Source: Octopus vulgaris (lineage: Eukaryota). From it: a stretch of DNA of 64,000 nt. The translations under genes and the position numbers were made by a program. Positions within the stretch are counted from its first letter, which is position 1. Every line of letters begins with the position of its first letter. Where the stretch lies: NCBI GenBank assembly GCA_951406725.2, contig OX597815.1, positions 136,276,001 to 136,340,000 on the forward strand, given 5' to 3'. Below, one piece after another: positions 7,261-62,530 of this stretch. The notes below the pieces were generated by a model. The model did not search any database, was not told the origin of the DNA, and was given only the letters and a program-made list of their open reading frames with translations.

Positions 7261-8442
7261 CACAGACATGCAGGAAGTAAATAGACAACTTTGATTTTCA
7301 AAATTTCTGATCTAAGCCTCTTGATATGCTTTCAGTGGTGTAGAATTTACAATGTAATTATTCTTTTTCATTCAAGGGGTCGTTATCTTAAACTTTTGCA
7401 AAGAGTAACCATGCTACGCACAAAATATTCAACAGAACTGTCAGATTTTCAAAGAGGTCATATTATTGGTCAATCTGAGGCTGGTCTTAGCCAGCGAAAA
7501 ATTGCCGAAATTTTTCATATTCCTCTTGCTACTGTTAATAGAATTATCGTGCAATTCAAAAGCCAAGGAAAAGAATCAACAGATTCTCGTCCCGGCCGAC
7601 CTGGGCTCTGAGAAAGGAAGCTTCGCTGTTTGAAGAGAATTGTGGAAAATGAACCCCGTTCAAAGGCTTCTGACATTGTAAAACCGCAAGAAGTTAGTCC
7701 AAGAACGTGTGTTATATATCTGCATAGGCTTGGGTATTATGGACGAGCAGCTAGAAGAAAAGCTCTTCTTCAACCAATTAATATCATGAAAAGAAAGAAA
7801 TGGGCTAAGGAGATGTCAGAAAAATCCAGTTTATTTTGGGATAGAATGATTTTCTCAGATTTATATTATTTTCAGACAGTGGACATGTTTGGGTTTGGAG
7901 AGTTCCCAGGGAGCTGTCACCAGCAATGGTTGTTCTGAGCTGATCGAATGTGTTGGAACAATAAACTCTGATAAATCCATCGAAATACTTAAGCAAAGAT
8001 TACTTACGATGTATTCAAACGATAATATAAGGAAAAATGAGTTTTTATTCATGGAAGATGGGGCTCCATGACACACAGCGAAAAGGAATCAACAATGGCT
8101 AACTGAAATTGGAATCAAAATGCTTCCTTGACCGAGCCAATCTCCTGACATCAACCCAATTGAAAATCTTTGGTGCATACTAGATAGCTTTATACGAAAA
8201 CCTCGACAGAAACCTCAATCTAACGATGAACTGCTTCGATTTCTGCGTGAAAAGTGGGCCGAAATTCCACAAGAGACAATCACAAACCTTATCAGTTCAA
8301 TGCCAAAAAGAGTTTCTGAATTAAAAACTGCAAAGGAAATGTGAATTAAATATTAATGCATGTACATTTCAGTTGTTCGTGTACGTATTAAATAAAAGAT
8401 TTTGAAAATTAAAGGTGTCTATTTACTTCCTGCATGTCTGTG
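7261..8442 (+). mobile_element. Tc1-family DNA transposon with both TIRs
   Basis: TIR CACAGACATGCAGGAAGTAAATAGAC at 7261 and its inverse ending at 8442, flanked by TA at both ends. Confidence 0.92.
7411..8356 (+). pseudogene. Tc1 transposase, with stops and frameshifts
   Basis: HTH region ([12 protein letters not shown]...GLSQRKIA), GRP motif, 'GYYGRAARRK', 'IFSD', 'FMEDGAP', 'PSQSPDINPIENLW' and terminal 'KY*'. Confidence 0.9.
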
Positions 8443-11938: not shown

Positions 11939-11978
<40 letters not shown>

Positions 11979-11984
11979 TAAAAC

Positions 11985-12732
11985 AAATTAATAAATAAAA
12001 CATATGCATATATACATACATATATGTACGTACCTACATCTACATGTATATATACATGCATATATATATATATGGGTACAGGACACTAAAAAAACACGCC
12101 GAAAACAATGAGAAACGAAAACATAAACACAAAACCAAGGAAATGGACATTTTTCTTAAACAACGAAAAAATAGAGTACAAGACATAGAACACAAGAAAA
12201 ATTTCCCTTCTTCAGTCGTCTCTGTTTCATCTACTCCGTGTTTCGAAGGTCAAGGCGCGACACGACCTCGTTGAAACATTCCTTCCCTGAGATTTTTTGC
12301 GGAGGGGTAAAAATGGTAACAAAAACAGTACAGTAAAGACAGTACAAAATATAAACAGTAAAAGACAGGACAAGGAGAATAACAGTAACACAGAGAAGGA
12401 AGGCTGTTAAGCCAAACGAGAGAAAATATTACGAACGCTTTTTTGAGAACGGCGAAGGAGGTACATACATATATAGATAGATAGATATATACATATCTAT
12501 ATGTACATGCCTACATATCTATATGTACAGATCTACATATCATATATGTACATACCTAAACATATATGTATATACACATGCATATATAGGTACAGGACGT
12601 CAAAAGAAAAAGTGAACAACATGAAACGAACTCTTTCTTTTTTCGAACAACGAAAGAAACTGTTAGAAAAACGAGACAGGCAAAATTAAGTACAATCCCT
12701 TCATCAGTTGTCCCCTGTTTTATATACTACGC

Positions 12733-25275: not shown

Positions 25276-27183
25276 ATTATTATTATTATTCTATGTTTGA
25301 CTTTTGCTTTATATTTGTACAAGTTGGCTCCAAGTCTCACCCAGAGACCTCAAGAGACAACAGGGTTGGAAGTTCATGTTGTTGTTATGCCTAGTGTGCC
25401 ATATATTTGGGGGGTGGGGATGTTGTACTAATGAATGTCTAAAAAGAAAAAAAAAGGTTTTTTTTTTTGTTTTTTTTTTTTGTTTTTTTTAAACCGAAAA
25501 TTATGTTTGTTTTAAACCTTGAGATTACATAGAGAGTATTTTGCGTAGGATATGAGCAGTTCCCATGAGCACTATCTTTTGAACTTCTGCCATTTTTGGG
25601 TTTCCTGGTATCTGAGTTAGGTAGCTATCAGCCCCTTTTGCTATCATTCCCAGGGCACCTATGACAACAGGTATTGTTTTTAGTCTTCAGCTTCCACATT
25701 TTGCTGATTTCTATTTCAAGATCTTTATATTTGCTCAGTTTTTGGTAGGTCTTGACAGATACGTTTATATCGATTGGGACAGTCATATCAATGAGGAGGC
25801 ATGTTCTTTGTTTGAAGTTTTTCAATATGATGTCTGGCCTATTTGCATCTATCTTCCTGTCAGTTTGAATGGTGAAGTTCCAGAGGAGTGAGATGTGGTC
25901 ATTTTCAAGCACTGGGGGTGGTTTGTGTTCCCACCAGTTTTTTTCATGGGGCAAATCCAGGTTTTTACAGATTACCCAGTGAATATATTGTGCAGCTCTA
26001 TCGTGCCTGTTGAGATACTCTGTAGGCGCTAGAAGACTGCACTTGGAGACCACATGGTCAATGGTTTCATTTTGTTGCTTGCATACACGACACGTTGGAC
26101 TGCTTCTGATCTTTAATATGTTGGCCTGGTAGTTTCTTGTTGGTAGGCATTGATCTTGAGCTGCTATGATAAACCCCTCTGTTTCAGATTTTAAGCCAGA
26201 GGCCATTAGCCATTGATGGGTCAGGGCTTTGTCGATATCTGCATTATTCGCTCTCTTTGGGTATTTGCCATAGAGAGGTTTTTCTTGCCATTTATTATTC
26301 AGAATATCTAAGGCCGCAGTTTTGGCACGGGTTTTCATGCGCCTAGCTTTTTCTGTGCTTGTTTCTTGTATATCTATCTCTAATTCCGAAATTGGTTGTA
26401 TTCGGAATTCACTTAGATATTCCTTTGCCTGTTTTGTGACTGAGTATGATGCTTTCTTGTTTTCATGTTTTGAGACAAGTTTTAGCATCCAGTCCTCAGA
26501 GTTTTTCAGGTAGGTGTCTAGGCCAATTGTAGCAATCTTCATTGTTATTGCCAGTTGCAAAAGACCACGGCCTCCCTCTTTTCTTGGCAGATAGAGTCGT
26601 TCTGTATCTGCCTTAGGGTGGTGCATTCTATGCATTGTCAACAGTTTCCTTATTTTTCTGTCGAGCTGACATATTTCAGTAATTGACCAGTTAACAATAT
26701 TGAAACTGTAAGTCACGACTGGTATAGCTAATGCATTGATTGCTTCGATCCTGTTTCTTGCATTCAGCTCTGTCTTGAGTATTGCTCTCACTCTTCGATA
26801 GCATTCTCTCCTGATCCTTTCCTTCATCTCTGAATGCCTTATTCCGTTCCCTTCAATTATCCCTAGGTACTTGTAGCTCTCCGCTGGGTCTAGTTCTTTT
26901 ATGACATTCTGTTGGTCAAGGTTAACGTTAGATGTTTCTGTCATTTTTCCTTTGATAAAGGTAGCCTTTGCACATTTATCGAGGCCGAATTGCATTCTGA
27001 TGTCGTCACTGAATTGTTTGACTATCGCTAGTAAGCCCTTGAGTTGTTGATCATTTTTTGCAAAAAGCTTTAAATCATCCATCGAGATGATTTATATTTT
27101 TATCAAACATTTTATATCGTCATCTTTGAGAGAGGTATTAAGGATCATCAGTGAGTCACCCTGGAAAATGCCACACGAAATTC
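25276..27183 (-). mobile_element. R4/Dong-like RLE non-LTR retrotransposon, 5'-truncated
   Basis: RT 'GIFQGDSL' (about 27150-27170) and 'MDDLKLF', plus 'GGRGL', a CCHC knuckle and RLE motifs. Flanked on both sides by (ATT)n. Confidence 0.9.
25628..27082 (-). pseudogene. R4/Dong ORF C-terminal 484 aa: RT, zinc knuckle and restriction-like endonuclease
   Basis: CRVCKQQNETIDHVVSKC, RHD, RPDIIL, IDMTVP and KLSKYKDL. A frameshift near the end continues as 'IPVVIGALG'. Confidence 0.9.
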
Positions 27184-28452: not shown

Positions 28453-29558
28453 CATCATTGTTATTACTATTAGTTTGTTGCTGTTGTTGTTGTTGTTGTT
28501 ATCCTATTGCTACTAAAGAATAATTGCTGTTACACTATTTACTTTTATTTTTCATTTCTTGATTTTAAGTTTTGCTGGAGTGTGAAAATCATAACTAGAA
28601 AATTCGATTAAATTTACTCAGCACAATCTTTAGTAACTATGTTTTTGCAAGAAATGATTAGTTTAAAATTCCAATATACTTTTTCTACAACCTTTCATGA
28701 ACTCCATCTCAGAAAGAAACTGAATTTATCCTTCTGTGCAATACTTATAAAATGCAATACTTATAGAAAATATTGCCTGTGTTGTAGTAATTTAGATCCA
28801 TGTTATACGCACTCCAACCCATTAGCTGCTGTAAAATCTTTTTGATATAGTTTAAACATTATTGTGTGAAACCCGACTACATAGTCTTCGACATTTGTCT
28901 GACATATTCTCTTGGTATTTCTAGAATTTTCGGTTTCTCCAGCTGTTATCAAAAGTAATGAAAATAAGAGTAATAAACCTAGCAAATTAAATGCCTGTAG
29001 TCTGGAATTTAGATATTTTCAAATTTTAAATTACTGTAGGTGATATTTCATCGTCTGTATTTACGATAATGGTGATAAGTTTGAGTTATTCATAAAATAT
29101 CAAAATACAACAGAAAATCGTTTGACACAAACAGCTGAACATTCCTGTTACTATTCGCGTGAGAAAATATCTGCCAACGGGTCAATGGGTCGTGTTTCAT
29201 AACCAGTACTGAGCAGTGCTCATGGTCAGGGCAGAAACCGACGCTGACTAACTTCATTCATTTGCAATTAGTTAATAATCATATGTAACAATACTAAACC
29301 GATTTCATGAAAAAAGAGGCAGCTGAAAATATTTTATTGTAGAAAATAAAACTGTTCATAAAAGATTCCATCCCAAGACCTACAGTAGTTTTTGTCTCGG
29401 AGTTTTTCATTAACTGTACACTGTTTGTCAGGTTGACTCGCATGTTTGTTTAGCATAAGGCATCATTTAGTACAACCATCACACGCTACAAGCTCCCATC
29501 CAACAGTCTATTAGAATCGTTTACATCTAATAGACTGCAGATTTTCAGGTTTGAGACT

Positions 29559-29658
29559 NNNNNNNNNNNNNNNNNNNNNNNNNNNNNNNNNNNNNNNNNN
29601 NNNNNNNNNNNNNNNNNNNNNNNNNNNNNNNNNNNNNNNNNNNNNNNNNNNNNNNNNN
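29559..29658. other. Assembly gap (100 N)
   Basis: Run of N. Confidence 1.
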
Positions 29659-36400: not shown

Positions 36401-37014
36401 TAAAAATAATAATGATGATGATGATGATGGTGCTGCTGCTGATGATGATGAAGATGATGATGATGGTGATGATGATGATGATGCTGATACAGGCTCTAAA
36501 CATGCAATTTAGGGTCACACATTTAGGAAGTGGAAATGGTTTGTCAATTAAATCGATGCTAATTCCTGGTAGGTGTATATTTCATAGATCCCGTGAAGAT
36601 GACAGTAAAACTTAAACCGTGTTGGACTCGGCAACAAAGCGCAAAGTTTATGAACGAATGTAGCAGCCAAAGCATTTCCGATAAATCAACGATTTGCTAG
36701 TCAACTTACCTGTCAAAATGAGTATGATATTCCTCGTTTTTTGTAGTATTACATTTCATTAGATAGATAACATGTATTATCGATTGACTGGTAATTAGTA
36801 TTTACAAACACTTGATATAATTTATGAAAGAGATTAACGTCAGTGTCGATCAGTTGTGAACTTAGTATCGAGTGAGACTAAAATTAATCACTACAGTACA
36901 TTTACTACGGCGCACTTTTACATCTTACATAACAAATATACACAAGCTTTCTCGTAACTGCCTGGTATGCACATACACACACACATACATACGTGTATAT
37001 ATATATATATATAT

Positions 37015-38046
37015 ATATATAAATTAATAAATAAAATATATGCATACATACATATATGTACGTAACTACATCTACATGTATATATACATGCATATATAAA
37101 TATATATATGTGAGTACAGGACACCACAAATAGACGTAGAACTCAACGAGAAACGAAAACGTAAAAACAAACATGGAAACGAACATTTTTTAACAACGAT
37201 AAAACAGAGAACAAGACAAACAATACAAGGAAAATTCCCCTTCATCAGCTGTCCCTTGTTCGACTCCGTGCGTGTTTCGAAGGTAAGGACAGAACACGAC
37301 TCGTCAAACTAGCCCTTCCTGCGAAAGAATTAAATAAAATTCCTTTGCCAAGGGGTAAAAACAAGGAAAGAAAAAAATGTGACAAAAACAGGACGTAAAA
37401 ACAATACAAATAAAAAACACAAATACTAAATAAAAATACAAATACAAAAAAATACAGTACAAGTAAAGAATAAAAACAGGACAAGGAAACAAACATTGAG
37501 GGCCTTTTTTTAGCCTAGACGATAGAAAAATTCAAGAGCGCAGGAAAAAAGCATGTTCACTTGTAGGAGGCCGCCAGCGAAAGGAAGTGGTCGACTCGGC
37601 TGTGTGAGAGATGAGGAGGAGTGAGAGAGAGAGAAAGAGAGGAAAGGAAACCAGAAAGGGTGAAAAATAAGAAGGAGAGAGACAGGCAAAGAGGAAGACA
37701 GACAGGAACGAAGGGAAGGTCAAGCAAAGGGTTACAGAGTTTCGCGTCATAATTATATATAAAAACGAAACGACGCGAGGGAGCTCAGTGATGCAATAAA
37801 TTAATAAATAAAATATATGCATACATACATATATGTACATACCTACATCTACATGTATATATACATGCATATATAAATATACATATGTGAGTACAGGACA
37901 CCACAAATAGACGTAGCCTGTACTCACATATATATATTTATATATGCATGTAGATGTAGGTACTTACATATATGTATGCATGTATGCATATATTTTATTT
38001 ATTAATTTATTGCATTACTGAGCGCCCTCGCGTCGTTTCGTTTCTT
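37015..38046 (-). mobile_element. Non-autonomous PLE-type element (partial tandem plus inverted segment)
   Basis: Direct repeat 37020-37140 / 37797-37917 (777-bp period). An inverted copy at 37918-38045 mirrors about 37762-37898. Has (TA)n flanks and an internal HHR. Confidence 0.75.
37237..37312 (-). ncRNA. Non-circularly permuted hammerhead ribozyme
   Basis: Minus strand reads CGTG-TT-CTGTCCTT-A-CCTTC-GAAA-CACG...AGGGACAG-CTGATGA-AGGGG. Confidence 0.7.
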
Positions 38047-38102
38047 TTCTGTTCTCCAAGTAAGTTTATATATATATACATATATATAGATTGTTAGCCA
38101 CT

Positions 38103-49619: not shown

Positions 49620-49976
49620 TATATACACACTTATATGTACATGCCTACATATATATGTATATATATACATGCATATATGTGTACAGGACGTCAAAAAACG
49701 TGAACAAAATGAGAATTGAAACGACGCGAGGGAGCTCAGTCATGCAATAATTTCATAAATAAAATATATGCATACATACATACATACATATATGTACGTA
49801 CCTACATCTAACATGTATATATACATGCATATATATATAAATATATATACGTAGTACAGGACACCACAAATAGACGTAGAACTCAACGAGAAACGAAAAC
49901 GTAAAAACAAACATGGAGACGGACCTTTTTTAACAACGAGAAAACAGAGTAGAAGACAAACAACACAAAGAAAATT

Positions 49977-50052
49977 CCCCTTCATCAGCTGTCCCTAGTT
50001 CGGCTCCATGCGTGTTTCGAAGGTAAGGACAGAACACGACTCGTCGAACTAG
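49977..50052 (-). ncRNA. Non-circularly permuted hammerhead ribozyme
   Basis: Near-identical to 37237-37312, within a repeat spanning about 49715-50056. Confidence 0.7.
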
Positions 50053-50097
<45 letters not shown>

Positions 50098-50185
50098 TAT
50101 TAGAGACAAAACCACTATTTTGCAAAACAAACAAGGAAAGACTTAATCAATACATAAAATTTTAATAAATAGTCAAAAAAAACCG

Positions 50186-50228
50186 CCACTACAATTGTTT
50201 CTTGTCTTGATCGACAATCTTCAGGTGG
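50186..50228 (-). ncRNA. Minimal type I hammerhead ribozyme (left arm)
   Basis: Reverse complement of 54197-54239. Confidence 0.85.
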
Positions 50229-53200
50229 ACTTCCAATCTAAAATATCAATATTTTAAAATATAAAAATAATAATTTTTTTAAAATAATTAAAGTATGAAT
50301 GAAAAAATATAAATATATAATCCATATATAACCTATATATAATCCATATATAATCAATATATAAACAATATATAAACTAAAATAAACCTATCAACAATTA
50401 AATATAAAATATAAAATATAAAATATAAAACAAAACAAAAAAATAATAATAATATAATAATAAACTATATATACACCCATACACATATACCTAATTATAT
50501 ATAACCATATCTAACTACATACACTAAATCACACACCTATATATATATCCCTATACATACACATAAAAACGTCTAGGCAACTATAAATAAATAAAATAGC
50601 TAAATACTTCAACACAATACTTATTCATACTCCCACACACACACACATACAACCCACATTCACGCTCTAGAAAACGGACATCACTTAAAATTATGAACGG
50701 AGAAATGGAATAAATGGAATTAAAAATTATATTCACTTGGTAAAACGAACACTACTTAAAAATTATGAATGAAACAATGCAATAAAACAACAGACATCGA
50801 AAATAGACACAAATTACTACGAATTCCTTAACAAACCTACCATGATAAACCAAAACTCATAAAAACATATAATGATAAAATCTCCCTTTACTAAACTCTA
50901 TAACATACCTATATAGCAATCCCCCTAACCTAAACATTCACACACAAATACACACACATAAACCACACACCCACGACATATACAAATACCCACACCACTT
51001 ACACATACCTATACATACATATAAACCTCAACATACACTCCAAAAACCCATTCAACCCCACACAGACAAATAAACACAAAAATTATGAATGGATTCTTTT
51101 ATAAAACTACCATGATAAGCTAAAACTCACAAAACATAAATGATAAAACCTCCCTTTACTAAACACTATAACATACTTATATAGCAATCCCTTTACCATT
51201 CCCAATTCCAAACATCTGGATGTGAGTGGGTGTATGCGTATTGCTGTGGATGTCGAGCTTAATACGTATGTATATGAGTGTGTATTGGGGGGTTGTACGT
51301 ATTTATCTGTCAATTCAACATACCAAATAGAACATATTAAAAATCACCAACAAACAACCATCACAAATGAAACCTACACCCATACAATGACAAAACTCCC
51401 CCCTCCATACCCAATTTACACCCACATAGCAATCCCAATATATTCATCCATACATGGACGCACGTGCGTGAAGCACATGCACACAATAAATACGTACAAC
51501 CCCCCCAATACACACTCATATACATACGTATTAAGCTCGACATCCACAGCAATACGCATACACCCACTCACACCCAGATGGGTGAATTGCACAACCAGGG
51601 AACGCACACACACGTGTGCGTATTTTGATTGTGCAACTCGCCCATATGCATGTATGCGGGCGCGATTACATTGTTGCACATATCGAGCCCAACTAGCATG
51701 CATATGTACATGTGAGGGGGTACACGTACATGCCGTGCGCGTGTACCCCCTGCATTTATACCCGTGCGTGAATATACACATGGAGACTACCACACAGGTA
51801 CAAATGTGTATAGTAATGGGAGCCCCATCACTACACTTAATGTATACTCTCACCCATCCGCACGGATGTGAAAGCGAATCTCCGGTGTATATGTTGAGGC
51901 TTATATGTAGCGCTGTGGAGGTGAACGTCGTTGAAATTGTGAATGAATGGGTGGAGTTGGGAATTGTAACCGGGTGGTGGGCTAGCGTTGCTTGGAATTG
52001 GGAATGGAATAGTGTAGTAGTAAGGCAGGCATCGAGAATAGATTTGGGTTACTGCAAGTTGTTTGTTAGAGCTGCTAAGATGAGCTAAAGCTCATAAATG
52101 TATATAATAATTTATTATTATGGTAGTTTTATTAAAGAATCCATTCATAATAAATTTTTTTTTTTAAGTAGTGATGGTTTGCCACGTGGATATAGTTTTT
52201 AGTTCCATTTATTCTATTCCTCCATTCATAATTTTAAATGACGTTTACTTTCCATGGCGCGTATTCTTTTTTTACATAAGTCATATTTCTATGGTAACGT
52301 AATTTTGGTTTGATTTTTTTAACGGCTAAGAATTGAATTTCACTTCATAATTTGAAACTGACTTGTAAGTATGTATTTTATTTCTCCTTATGTCATATTG
52401 TTATTTTTGATATTCTGGTTAATTACGATGTATTTAATGTTGTTTTTTATTGGAGTGTTTATGTATATGAGATTGTGTGTGACTTTTTAGTTGTATAATT
52501 TATTTATCTGTATGAGTGTGGGTGTGTAAATATTGTTGTATATATCGAGTTTAGTGAGTATGTATATGCGTATATTGAGGGAGTATATGTATCTGTTGTG
52601 TGTGTGTGTTTTGCGTGTGTGTGTGTTTGTGTGTGAATGTGTATATGGGTTTGTTATTTAGGTTTTGGGATGTATGTGTTAATTTGTCTGTGTGGGGAGG
52701 GAGTGGGTTTTTGGTGTATATTGAGGTTTATAAGTTAGTATAGGTATGTGTATAAGTTGTGGGTCTGTGGTTTACGTGTGTGTTTTTTGTGTGTGAATGT
52801 TTAGGTTAGGGGGATTGCTATATAGGTTTGTTATAGAGTTTAGCAAAGGGAGATTTTATCGTTATATGTTTTTAAGAGTTTTGGTTTATCATGGTTTTTT
52901 TTAGGGAATTCGTGGTAATTTGTCTATTTTCGATGTTGGTTGGTTTATTACATTGTTTCATTCATAATTTTTGAGTGGTGTTCGTTTTGCCACGTGAATA
53001 TTATTTTTAATTCCATTTATTCCATTTCTCCATTCATTATTTTAAAGATGTCCGTTTCCAGAGCGGTTATATATTTTTTATACATATGTTAAGTTCCTTG
53101 GTAAAGTAATTTTGTTTGGTGTATATGTTGAGGCTTATATGTACTTGTGGGTGTGTGTGAGTGGGGTGGGTGTTTGTATTTGTTATGGGTGTGTGGTTTA

Positions 53201-54196
53201 CGTGTGTGTATTTGTGTGTGAATGTATAGGTTAAAGGGATTGCTATATAAGTATGTTATAGTGTTTAGTAAAGGGAGGTTTTATCATTTATGTTTTGTGA
53301 GTTTTAGCTTATCATGGTAGTTTTATAAAAGAATCCATTCATAATTTTTGTGTTTATTTGTCTGTGTGGGGTTGAGTGGGTTTTTGGAGTGTATGTTGAG
53401 GTTTATATGTATGTATAGGTATGTGTAAGTGGTGTGGGTATTTGTATATGTCGTGGGTGTGTGGTTTATGTGTGTGTATTTGTGTGTGAATGTTTAGGTT
53501 AGGGGGATTGCTATATAGGTATGTTATAGAGTTTAGTAAAGGGAGATTTTATCATTATATGTTTTTATGAGTTTTGGTTTATCATGGTAGGTTTGTTAAG
53601 GAATTCGTAGTAATTTGTGTCTATTTTCGATGTCTGTTGTTTTATTGCATTGTTTCATTCATAATTTTTAAGTAGTGTTCGTTTTACCAAGTGAATATAA
53701 TTTTTAATTCCATTTATTCCATTTCTCCGTTCATAATTTTAAGTGATGTCCGTTTTCTAGAGCGTGAATGTGGGTTGTATGTGTGTGTGTGTGGGAGTAT
53801 GAATAAGTATTGTGTTGAAGTATTTAGCTATTTTATTTATTTATAGTTGCCTAGACGTTTTTATGTGTATGTATAGGGATATATATATAGGTGTGTGATT
53901 TAGTGTATGTAGTTAGATATGGTTATATATAATTAGGTATATGTGTATGGATGTATATATAGTTTATTATTATATTATTATTATTTTTTTGTTTTGTTTT
54001 ATATTTTATATTTTATATTTTATATTTAATTGTTGATAGGTTTATTTTAGTTTATATATTGTTTATATATTGATTATATATGGATTATATATAGGTTATA
54101 TATGGATTATATATTTATATTTTTTCATTCATACTTTTAATTATTTTAAAATTATTATTTTTATATTTTAAAATATTGATATTTTAGATTGGAAGT

Positions 54197-54239
54197 CCAC
54201 CTGAAGATTGTCGATCAAGACAAGAAACAATTGTAGTGG
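54197..54239 (+). ncRNA. Minimal type I hammerhead ribozyme (right arm)
   Basis: CCAC-CTGAAGA-TTGTC-GATCAA-GACAA-GAAA-CAATTG-TA-GTGG. All three stems pair perfectly and the triplet is GUA. Confidence 0.88.
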
Positions 54240-54417
54240 CGGTTTTTTTTACTATTTATTAAAATTTTATGTATTGATTAAGTCTTTCCTTGTTTGTTTT
54301 GCAAAATAGTGGTTTTGTCTCTAATAATATTTTATAATATTTTACTATAAAATTGGATTTAATCCTAAATCTGTTTTTTTCCCTGTAAATTTGGATTTAT
54401 TCCCTAATATTTATTAT

Positions 54418-54609: not shown

Positions 54610-55020
54610 AAAAAATGTGCACGCCCAAACTGTGGGACATGCCCCCTCCTACTTCAAGGTTCTGAATTTACCTTCAAACAAGGTACGAAGTTTAAAATCA
54701 AGACTAACTTCTCCTGTTCCTCCGAGAACCTTATCTACGTTCTCACATGCGCTGGTTGCCAACATAATTATGTTGGACAAACGAGTCTCCCGTTACGTAA
54801 ACGAGTAGCGGTGCATAAAGAACAAATAAATCTCCCGGAATACCGACAAATTCCACTGAGTGACCACATAGACTCATGCGCTAAAGACTTAAACCCCAAA
54901 TTCTATATATTCCCCTTCTACCAATGTAAAGACGGCATCACCACACAGGAGAGAATTAACAAGGAGAATCTCTTTATTGAAAAATTCCAAACACAACTTA
55001 ATATACAAACTCCTCGTTGA
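54610..55020 (+). pseudogene. PLE Cys-rich linker plus GIY-YIG endonuclease (3' fragment)
   Basis: One frame reads KKCARPNCGTCP...FSCSSENLIYVLTCAGCQHNYVGQTSLPLRKRVAVH...HIDSC...ERINKENLFIEKFQTQLN. No RT lies upstream. Confidence 0.88.
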
Positions 55021-61167: not shown

Positions 61168-62530
61168 CAGTTGCGGCCAAAATGTTCTGAACGGCATTGT
61201 TTTCGCCAGAAAAGTAGGTATAAGTTTTTATCATAGTTGTTTTATATTCTATAATTTTCACATACAATAAATACAATATTAATTGTTATTGTCTGAGATT
61301 TTGGTGTAATTTGAGAGGATAATACAAAAGTTATGGATGATTTAGTGATTCACTGCAAAACCCATGGCGGCGAAAATTATCAGAACGGTTGCTTTTACTC
61401 CGTGTTTTAGTATATTTAACCGGCGAACTCTAATGTTTTGAATTTGTTTACGTGATGGTTCGTTTACTAAACATTAGTAAGAATATCTGCAGTGTACTTT
61501 GTTAATATAATGCCACTTACTCCGTTACCAATTCGTCAGCAGATTATTAAGCTTCGAAAGAAGGATAATTTAAGTATTGGGTCTATTGCAAAGATTGTTA
61601 ACAAGTCAAAAAGTGTTGTTCACGGTATTCTTAAGGTCTTCGATGATTGTGGTTCGTGTGAAGCAAGAAAGTCTACAGGTAGGCTAAGAAAAACGACCAA
61701 GAGAGAAGATTGTGCTATGGTAAAGTTGGTTAGAAAGGACAGATTTAAAACTGCTGCTGCTGTTTCTTGGGAAATGAGCATAGTAATGAAGAAAACGTTA
61801 TCTCGAAAAACAGTGTCTCATCGTTTAGTTGAACATAACCTACAAGCAAGATCACCTCCAGTGAAGCCACTGATCAGCTCCAAAAATAAGAACTGTCGTC
61901 TTATCTTTGCAATCGAACATCAGTTGTGGTCTCAAGAAAAATGGCAATCGGTGCATTTCAGGGATGAATCTAAGTCTATGTTATTTGGCTCAGATGGTTC
62001 GTTGAAAAGTAGGTGAAACATTGTCGCCTAAATGCCTTAAGACTAATGTTAAATTCGGTGGAGGAAGTGTCATGGTTTGGGGGATGATATCTGGAGATGG
62101 TGTGGGCTCTTTGGTGCGATTACATGGAAAGTTAAATGCAGGAGTTTATAAACAACATGTAAAAGATCATGTCTTGCCTGTGCTGAGAAATTCAACTAAG
62201 CGACCACCCATATTCATGCAGGACAATGCCCCATGTCACAAGGCTAAGGTGGTCATGAACTTCCTCAAGGCTGAAAAGGATCTCAATCCTATTGAAAATG
62301 TGTGGAATATTCTAGGAGAACGTTCGAAAGCCAGAAATCCTAAAACAACCGAGCAATTATGGAATGCCCTTCAGGAAGAATGGAATAAGATCACCTAGCA
62401 AAACATTGAAAATTTAATTTCCTCATGCAGTCAAAGTGTGATTGAAGCTAAAGTGCTTCACACTAAATATTAAATAATTCCAGTATTCTCTGTCATTTTT
62501 TATTATTTTGTTATTTTTTCGTTTAAATAA
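61168..62530 (+). mobile_element. Tc1-family transposon, left IR/DR end only
   Basis: TA-CAGTTGCGGCCAAAATGTTCTGAACGG, with an inner DR-like copy at about 61363. No right TIR was found. Confidence 0.8.
61510..62473 (+). pseudogene. Tc1 transposase, with deletions and stops
   Basis: HTH, 'KPLIS', 'VHFRDESK', 'VKFGGGSVMVWG', 'FMQDNAPCH', 'DLNPIENVW' and 'TKY*'. Confidence 0.92.

Follow-up and report, generated by a model that had tools for sequence, protein, structure and literature searches.

Does a short stretch of octopus DNA that carries the letters of a hammerhead ribozyme in an unusual strand order encode a genuine RNA fold and, if so, what kind of hammerhead is it and what carries it? 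We analyzed a window of 64,000 nucleotides (nt) of the Octopus vulgaris genome (GenBank assembly GCA_951406725.2, contig OX597815.1, positions 136,276,001 to 136,340,000; positions below are those of the window), in which an initial annotation had placed, on the minus strand at 12204..12279, a hammerhead with the non-circular strand order cut site, GAAA, CUGAnGA. This order was borne out, with every listed segment present at the letters given, and the interpretation as an RNA fold was supported in part; however, the feature reaches 12307 and includes an upstream stem II strand, a hairpin V and a helix IV that had been missed, and both the retroelement context and the decay of this copy had been overlooked. 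On sequence evidence, the stretch is likely to be a decayed copy of a Penelope-like repeat that is non-coding and present in many copies; the RNA of this repeat is predicted to fold as a non-circularly permuted hammerhead with a split core; intact members would cut themselves after GUH. At the level of the family, there is probably a real ribozyme of a known class in a novel wiring, seen here in a damaged copy.

Strand order and covarying helices

From 5' to 3', the predicted order of strands is IVa - hairpin V - IIa - T - IIIb.U.H / Ia - 2-3 nt - IIb.GAAA.IIIa - T' - Ib.CUGAnGA - IVb, where the slash marks the cut and T is the outer helix (Table 1). The upstream partner of stem II, GAAGG, forms 5/5 Watson-Crick pairs in 67 of 87 copies, compared with a mean of 2.0/5 for the downstream strand, and the duplex energies are −7.3 and −3.1 kcal/mol, respectively. 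The script took the best of 42 positions for the upstream partner; the real signal is its fixed offset (−39 to −41 in 73/87 copies). One subfamily lengthens stem II to GAAGGC/GCCUUC, and in the window copy GAAGG pairs perfectly with CCUUC. Hairpin V lies directly 5' of the upstream GAAGG, and directly 5' of hairpin V is CCCCU, complementary to the AGGGG that follows A9. Because no unpaired base is left between helix IV, hairpin V, stem II and the A9.G12 pair, these elements may form a four-way junction, by which the catalytic strand, broken between A9 and G10.1, would likely be rejoined.

Covariation was analyzed in 43 of the 107 copies collected; no cluster contributed more than 6, and 3 of the 46 copies chosen were excluded. 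Clustering of the 107 copies yielded eight clusters of at least two and 14 singletons. Double-sided changes were observed in 13/27 pairs (including 4/6 in stem I, 5/6 in helix T and 3/5 in stem III), 94.5% of the cells are paired compared with 48-53% in slid controls, and the covariation score was reached by none of 500 shuffles; the cells count sequences, not events, the independent events being a handful of subfamilies. For the remaining helices, 40 rows were available: 4/7 pairs at the base of hairpin V change on both sides (93.6% paired), stem II with its upstream partner is 99.5% paired, and helix IV is paired in 92% of cells, without double-sided change within the family. At least 4/5 pairs of helix IV are present in 56 of the 65 copies that have an intact hairpin V. 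The letters of the hammerhead core, CUGAnGA, GAAA and U16.1-H17, are kept across subfamilies, stems I and III covary, and stem II is invariant within the family and replaced between families. The swapped but complementary stems described in the initial annotation were accordingly recovered in the larger set, with stem I, stem III and the outer helix covarying between subfamilies.

Stem I of the window copy (GCGCCTT/GAGACGA) forms 5/7 pairs, as had been claimed, and the two mismatches are a G at 1.1, private to this copy, and an A at 2.4, shared by 2/32 subfamily A copies. Lack of stem I complementarity in the subfamily had been named beforehand as the observation that would refute the fold; complementarity is not lacking, and the subfamily helix TCGCCT/AGGCGA is fully paired (6/6) in 25/32 subfamily A copies and at least 5/6 paired in all 32. 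By analogy with hammerheads, the predicted cut indeed maps between 12259 and 12258. The window copy has lost ~25 nt of hairpin V, including most of its 3' strand, and is probably inactive or slow; being decayed, it is weak evidence by itself.

Carrier repeat and Naiad elements

The host genome is 2.8 Gb in size and rich in microsatellites. A strict pattern gave 2,088 exact genome matches (a few of which overlap) compared with 0 for the reversed control, and for each of two subfamilies DNA searches yielded over 2,300 preliminary candidates. Five matches in 709 kb, within loci retrieved for unrelated purposes, point to a rough figure of ~20,000 copies genome-wide. The ribozyme carrier is roughly 0.8 kb long and has no protein-like open reading frame (ORF) among those listed. 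Five insertions contain head-to-tail units, with spacings of 803, 813, 816, 823 and 898 nt and one ribozyme per unit; irregular spacings (249, 651 and 1135 nt) were seen as well. Copies occur on both strands, as inverted truncated partners, in 11/109 loci (two pairs of loci overlap), and the insertions sit in (TA)n. Tandem arrangement, inverted truncated copies and (TA)n targets are the Penelope-like traits given by Craig et al. 2021 (PMC8557442) and, together with the lack of an ORF, characterize the repeat as a likely non-autonomous Penelope-like element or retrozyme.

A splice-donor-like GTAAGT is located near the 3' tail of the unit (L017:1075-1085, L059:1055-1065) in subfamilies A, B and E and is absent in the others. 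The idea of a splice site, with a CAG before G10.1 and GTAAGT downstream, was rejected, the CAG being accounted for by the covarying hairpin V pairs CTGC/GCAG, CCGC/GCGG and CTAC/GTAG.

Among Penelope-like elements, Naiads were described by Craig et al. as lacking canonical hammerheads, with 10 marked HHR_core and 8 marked HHR_half_core, an Octopus Naiad among them (PMC8557442). We searched File S5 of that paper for core words and read the flanks by eye at 58/62 CTGATGA, 21/25 CTGAGGA, 21/23 CTGACGA and 9/43 CTGAAGA places, which covers part of the 54 published Naiads. Within this coverage, 10 of the published consensus sequences, which represent seven sequence types and five phyla, end in the full arrangement of six helices in other letters; they are Beroe, a Clytia Naiad, three Acropora, Morbakka-2, two Octopus and, assigned by file order, probably Pomphorhynchus and Eulimnadia. 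The Acropora helices, for example, are IV GUAACUGU/ACAGUUGC, II GGCUCC/GGAGCC and I UAGGAU/AUCCUA, and those of a probable Naiad_Plae are IV AGAGG/CCUCU, V AAAUACAU/AUGUAUUU and II GGCCCC/GGGGCC. In these sequences, what follows the core is no match for the 3' strand of stem II. Seven other Naiads (two Pristionchus, three Nippostrongylus and two identified by file position) read as contiguous hammerheads of type CSG with a T helix, and one reads as canonical type III.

A Naiad-type motif is present in the octopus genome itself, with 326 exact matches (control, 0). This family has stem II GACACC/GGUGUC in the upstream position, stem I CUGCCC/GGGCAG, its own hairpin V and a helix IV of UGG/CCA, and no downstream partner for stem II; stem II, hairpin V and the short helix IV are shown by 44 copies. 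The ribozyme lies 3' of a reverse transcriptase (RT; PF00078, E = 1.3e-5), which was found upstream in L163/L206, L208 and L247. In copy L257 of the same RT family, a GIY-YIG domain is N-terminal to the RT, in broken frames, which is the Naiad order, and by eye the 3' ends match those of published Octopus Naiads. The window repeat has in common with Naiads the (TA)n targets, partial tandem repeats, inverted 5'-truncated copies, a tail of 30-40 base pairs (bp) and core motifs that fit no descriptor (PMC8557442), but it has no ORF, and blastn detected no similarity to the 3' end of the sampled Naiad family beyond the common fold. The fold is probably inherited from, or common with, Naiad elements.

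By eye, the loop between stem III and helix T of the Naiad ribozyme (L091-L110, L156-L185) reads as a box C/D-like kink-turn, with A-A/G-U-G-A-U opposite U-G-A; this reading is plausible in subfamily B of the repeat, irregular in A and absent in C. The kink-turn is a protein-binding motif with a known consensus.

Known hammerheads, rival readings and possible function

The strand order found here, S-G-C, differs from the circular order of canonical types I-III. Type SGC (HRIMA-1 and variants; Eckert et al. 2023, PMC10085705) has the same order, core letters, short linker between stems I and II and helix joining the distal ends of these stems; however, CUGAnGA there leads directly into stem II, the two forming a 'Block C' that was assumed to be indivisible, whereas here the 5' strand of stem II is upstream and helix IV and hairpin V are inserted between A9 and G10.1, a weak downstream register being possible in the window's family only. 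Type CSG belongs to the same circular class of strand order as the split form, but has a contiguous core, its circle being opened next to stem III, whereas here the same circle is opened inside the core. In the available sections of that paper, type SGC is known from metatranscriptomes only, with none in genomes of known organisms, and type CSG, which was shown to cleave, from two metagenome sequences only. The PK hammerhead (Zhan et al. 2024, PMC11300833) likewise combines a hammerhead core with extra helices and a pseudoknot; there, in contrast, A9, G10.1, C11.1 and G12 close one loop, the order is circular and 'helix IV' is another element, and neither the continuous A9-G10.1 nor the loop II pseudoknot is found here. 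Non-long terminal repeat (non-LTR) retrozymes (Li et al., bioRxiv 10.64898/2026.07.22.740005) are also non-coding tandem units with one hammerhead, proposed to be non-autonomous Penelope-like derivatives, but in its available sections that study describes no permuted or split hammerhead and ties Naiads to no retrozyme. No such fold is described in the available sections of PMC10162972 and PMC13725137, and a literature search that reached few subscription journals returned no report of a permuted hammerhead from Naiads or from the genome of any animal.

If stem II were formed by the GGGG after the core, with one extra A, the element would be an ordinary type SGC hammerhead and the upstream helices would be unrelated to it; the initial annotation had indeed assigned AGGG to stem II. 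In a natural viroid hammerhead, a single additional base is tolerated here. The required pairs (G-C, G.U, G.U, G-C) are possible in 95.9% of cells, canonical Penelope-type hammerheads show an extra base after A9 (File S2 rows), and type SGC cleaves in vitro (PMC10085705). However, this downstream helix, with its extra A and two G.U pairs, is without double-sided change, the upstream strand provides a perfect partner with a conserved, fixed offset, helix IV already accounts for AGGGG, and both the Naiad family of this genome, which cannot pair there, and the published Naiads keep the upstream partner without a downstream one. The assignment of AGGG to stem II is therefore probably wrong and an ordinary type SGC hammerhead very unlikely. 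Chance complementarity that hitch-hiked in a few master copies would agree with the small number of evolutionary events that the subfamilies represent, but six helices recur in unrelated letters in the seven sequence types, which come from five phyla, and in two families of this genome, and the reversed-pattern controls are all 0, which renders this explanation extremely improbable.

A fold that is real and selected could also serve the Penelope RT as a signal for binding or priming, without cutting itself, or could cut only with a protein. The broken core has no precedent in the literature searched, 5' ends do not pile up sharply at the cut, and, by eye, the T/III junction of the Naiad family, and plausibly that of subfamily B, resembles a kink-turn. 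Nevertheless, we consider this rather unlikely, given that all the catalytic letters (CUGAnGA, GAAA, U16.1 and, as H17, C, U or A) persist from one subfamily and phylum to the next although each helix differs, and that sister Naiads carry the contiguous type CSG, a form shown to cleave (PMC10085705).

Several observations weigh against a split, self-cutting hammerhead and temper the preference for it. The strict test for hairpin V was passed by only 65/113 copies, truncated and decayed ones included. Stems II and IV are nearly invariant within the window's family and, therefore, their support comes from the comparison between families, mostly by eye; in that comparison, helix IV of the genome's Naiad family has only 3 firm pairs and stem I of Beroe only 2 bp. 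Besides the weak stem II register, AGGGG can form a local hairpin with TTCCT (96.7% paired, two G.U), which was set aside for helix IV. Nested folding showed no significant stability (z from 0.7 to −1.75) and is uninformative because the fold is a pseudoknot. No natural hammerhead broken between A9 and G10.1 was found in the literature search, within its limited reach of subscription journals. Evidence for cleavage in vivo is weak: by eye, in the first 100 of 874 matches, 22 truncated copies of the repeat start within 19 nt upstream of CCTTC, 20 at or 3' of the cut but only 2 exactly at the cut, so that 5' ends cluster just 3' of it (20 against 2) and rarely coincide with it. Microhomology to TA confounds this count, as does one letter of the filter, through which intact copies of subfamily B are lost. 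Boundaries in the Naiad family show no clear peak (7/81 within 10 nt of the cut, 2 at the cut and 19 at 17-52 nt). No coding element with this ribozyme subfamily was detected in 43 RT/GIY-YIG loci. Finally, divergence from consensus has a median of 8% in the genome's Naiads compared with 1.5-3% in the repeat, in samples that were chosen differently; Naiads being more decayed than the repeat, the present mobilizer may be another element. Neptune-type elements, of which intact ORFs of 753-782 amino acids are abundant in the genome, are possible mobilizers. As a parent of the repeat, Neptune-type elements with intact ORFs of 753 and 781 amino acids were rejected: they have no similarity to it, and the one ribozyme copy found nearby (L239) is missing in five sister copies.

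For a self-cutting split hammerhead, a likely course of events can be outlined. Stem II would stack on the A9.G12 pair as in any hammerhead, helix IV would be stacked on hairpin V, and the active site would be the ordinary one, with G12 as the base and the G8 2'-OH as the acid (roles described in PMC11300833). Tandem transcripts would be cleaved to unit-length RNA, both ends of which would stay zipped by ~20 bp in stem II, helix T, stem III and helix IV; zipped ends could favour rejoining into a circle or a template jump, and a Penelope-type RT acting in trans would copy the unit into (TA)n sites. We lean, by a small measure, towards the fuller account in which this is a natural active hammerhead whose catalytic strand, opened between A9 and G10.1, is restored by a four-way junction, the split and CSG forms are the missing Naiad ribozymes across animal phyla, the genomes concerned are the first named ones to harbour non-circularly permuted hammerheads (tens of thousands of copies here), and the zipped ends serve replication through a circle.

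The split form would contradict the stated rule that CUGAnGA and stem II are inseparable and add a further wiring to the six permutations of Eckert et al. Moreover, it would explain why Naiads, which are among the most abundant invertebrate retroelements, seemed to be without the hammerheads of other Penelope-like elements, the descriptors being blind to them, and would put non-circular hammerheads, with a likely job, in animal genomes. The presence of CSG and split forms within one clade suggests a possible route for interconversion of permutations. Natural compensatory variants and the shortness of the RNA (~105-135 nt) make the fold readily testable.

Other copies and neighbouring elements in the window

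The window contains three near-complete ribozyme copies (12.2, 37.2 and 50.0 kb) and one partial copy (12.7 kb). The latter, with GGGGACAA-CTGATGA-AGGG, is present as initially reported, whereas two details given for the 37.2-kb copy need correction: its core differs from that at 12.2 kb, with CTGATGA and, in CGTG-TT, a GUU triplet, and the outer helix is CTAGTTT/GAACAAG, the perfect form CTAGTTC/GAACTAG being that of the third copy (~50.0 kb) and of the subfamily majority. A motif scanner, which misses decayed copies, found only the 37-kb copy in the window, with 2 matches at the same threshold in 30 shuffles. An Rfam scan of the window returned no hammerhead at E ≤ 1, as expected because the strand order is non-nested, and its only matches were to microRNAs driven by microsatellites.

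Table 1 Predicted ribozyme parts and repeat copies in the window.
Feature	Position	Strand	Details
Repeat copy at 12.2 kb	11975..12442	-	5'-truncated, non-coding, ribozyme-carrying unit; ends in (TA)n; blastn vs tandem copy L022, 86% identity
Whole predicted split-core hammerhead	12204..12307	-	subfamily A, decayed copy
Helix IV 5' strand	12303..12307	-	CCCCT; partner is the strand right after A9; 4/5 pairs in window copy
Hairpin V remnant	12286..12302	-	17 nt (intact subfamily A copies 41-42 nt)
Stem II 5' strand	12281..12285	-	GAAGG; G10.1 = 12285
Helix T (outer helix) 5' strand	12272..12278	-	TGTTTCA; predicted to bridge distal ends of stems II and I
Stem III 3' strand, U16.1 and C17	12259..12264	-	CGTG 12264-12261; U16.1 12260; C17 12259
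Stem I strand after predicted cut	12252..12258	-	GCGCCTT (subfamily TCGCCTT)
Stem II 3' strand, GAAA and stem III	12237..12249	-	CCTTC 12249-12245; GAAA 12244-12241 (G12 = 12244); stem III CACG 12240-12237
Helix T 3' strand	12223..12229	-	TGAAACA
Stem I strand and core	12209..12222	-	GAGACGA 12222-12216 (subfamily GAGGCGA); CTGAAGA 12215-12209; C3 = 12215, A9 = 12209
Helix IV 3' strand	12204..12208	-	AGGGA (subfamily AGGGG); AGGG = 12208-12205
Second, more truncated copy	12462..12725	-	other subfamily (E type, stem I strand GGGACAA); only 3' part of ribozyme
Subfamily B copy	37008..37916	-	longer than one unit; GUU triplet and hairpin V in the ribozyme (37355-37237)
Inverted truncated piece	37917-38076		adjoins the subfamily B copy
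Subfamily B copy, truncated	49702..50056	-	truncated inside stem II 5' strand

Other elements of the window include a young RLE-type non-LTR retrotransposon at 25628-27091 (-), for which 150 scored genome matches are 100% identical over 184 amino acids and the 3' untranslated region contained a hammerhead core in 0/30 copies, two broken Tc1/mariner-like transposase genes at 7285-7938 (+) and 61471-62398 (+), and a run of 100 N (assembly gap) at ~29557-29656. A minimal hammerhead of canonical type I (CAC-CTGAAGA-TTGTC/GACAA-GAAA-palindromic stem III) occurs in two copies, at 54198-54243 (+) and 50227-50182 (-), in the arms of a large inverted repeat (50175-54250) and beside a GIY-YIG endonuclease fragment from the C-terminal end, belonging to a Neptune-type Penelope-like family (PF01541, E = 1.4e-4; 54610-55020, +). 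Elsewhere in the genome, another canonical Penelope-type hammerhead family, ACAC-CTGATGA-A-GGCTG...CAGCC-GAAA, occurs in (AAT)n at L245:7177, L323 and L334.
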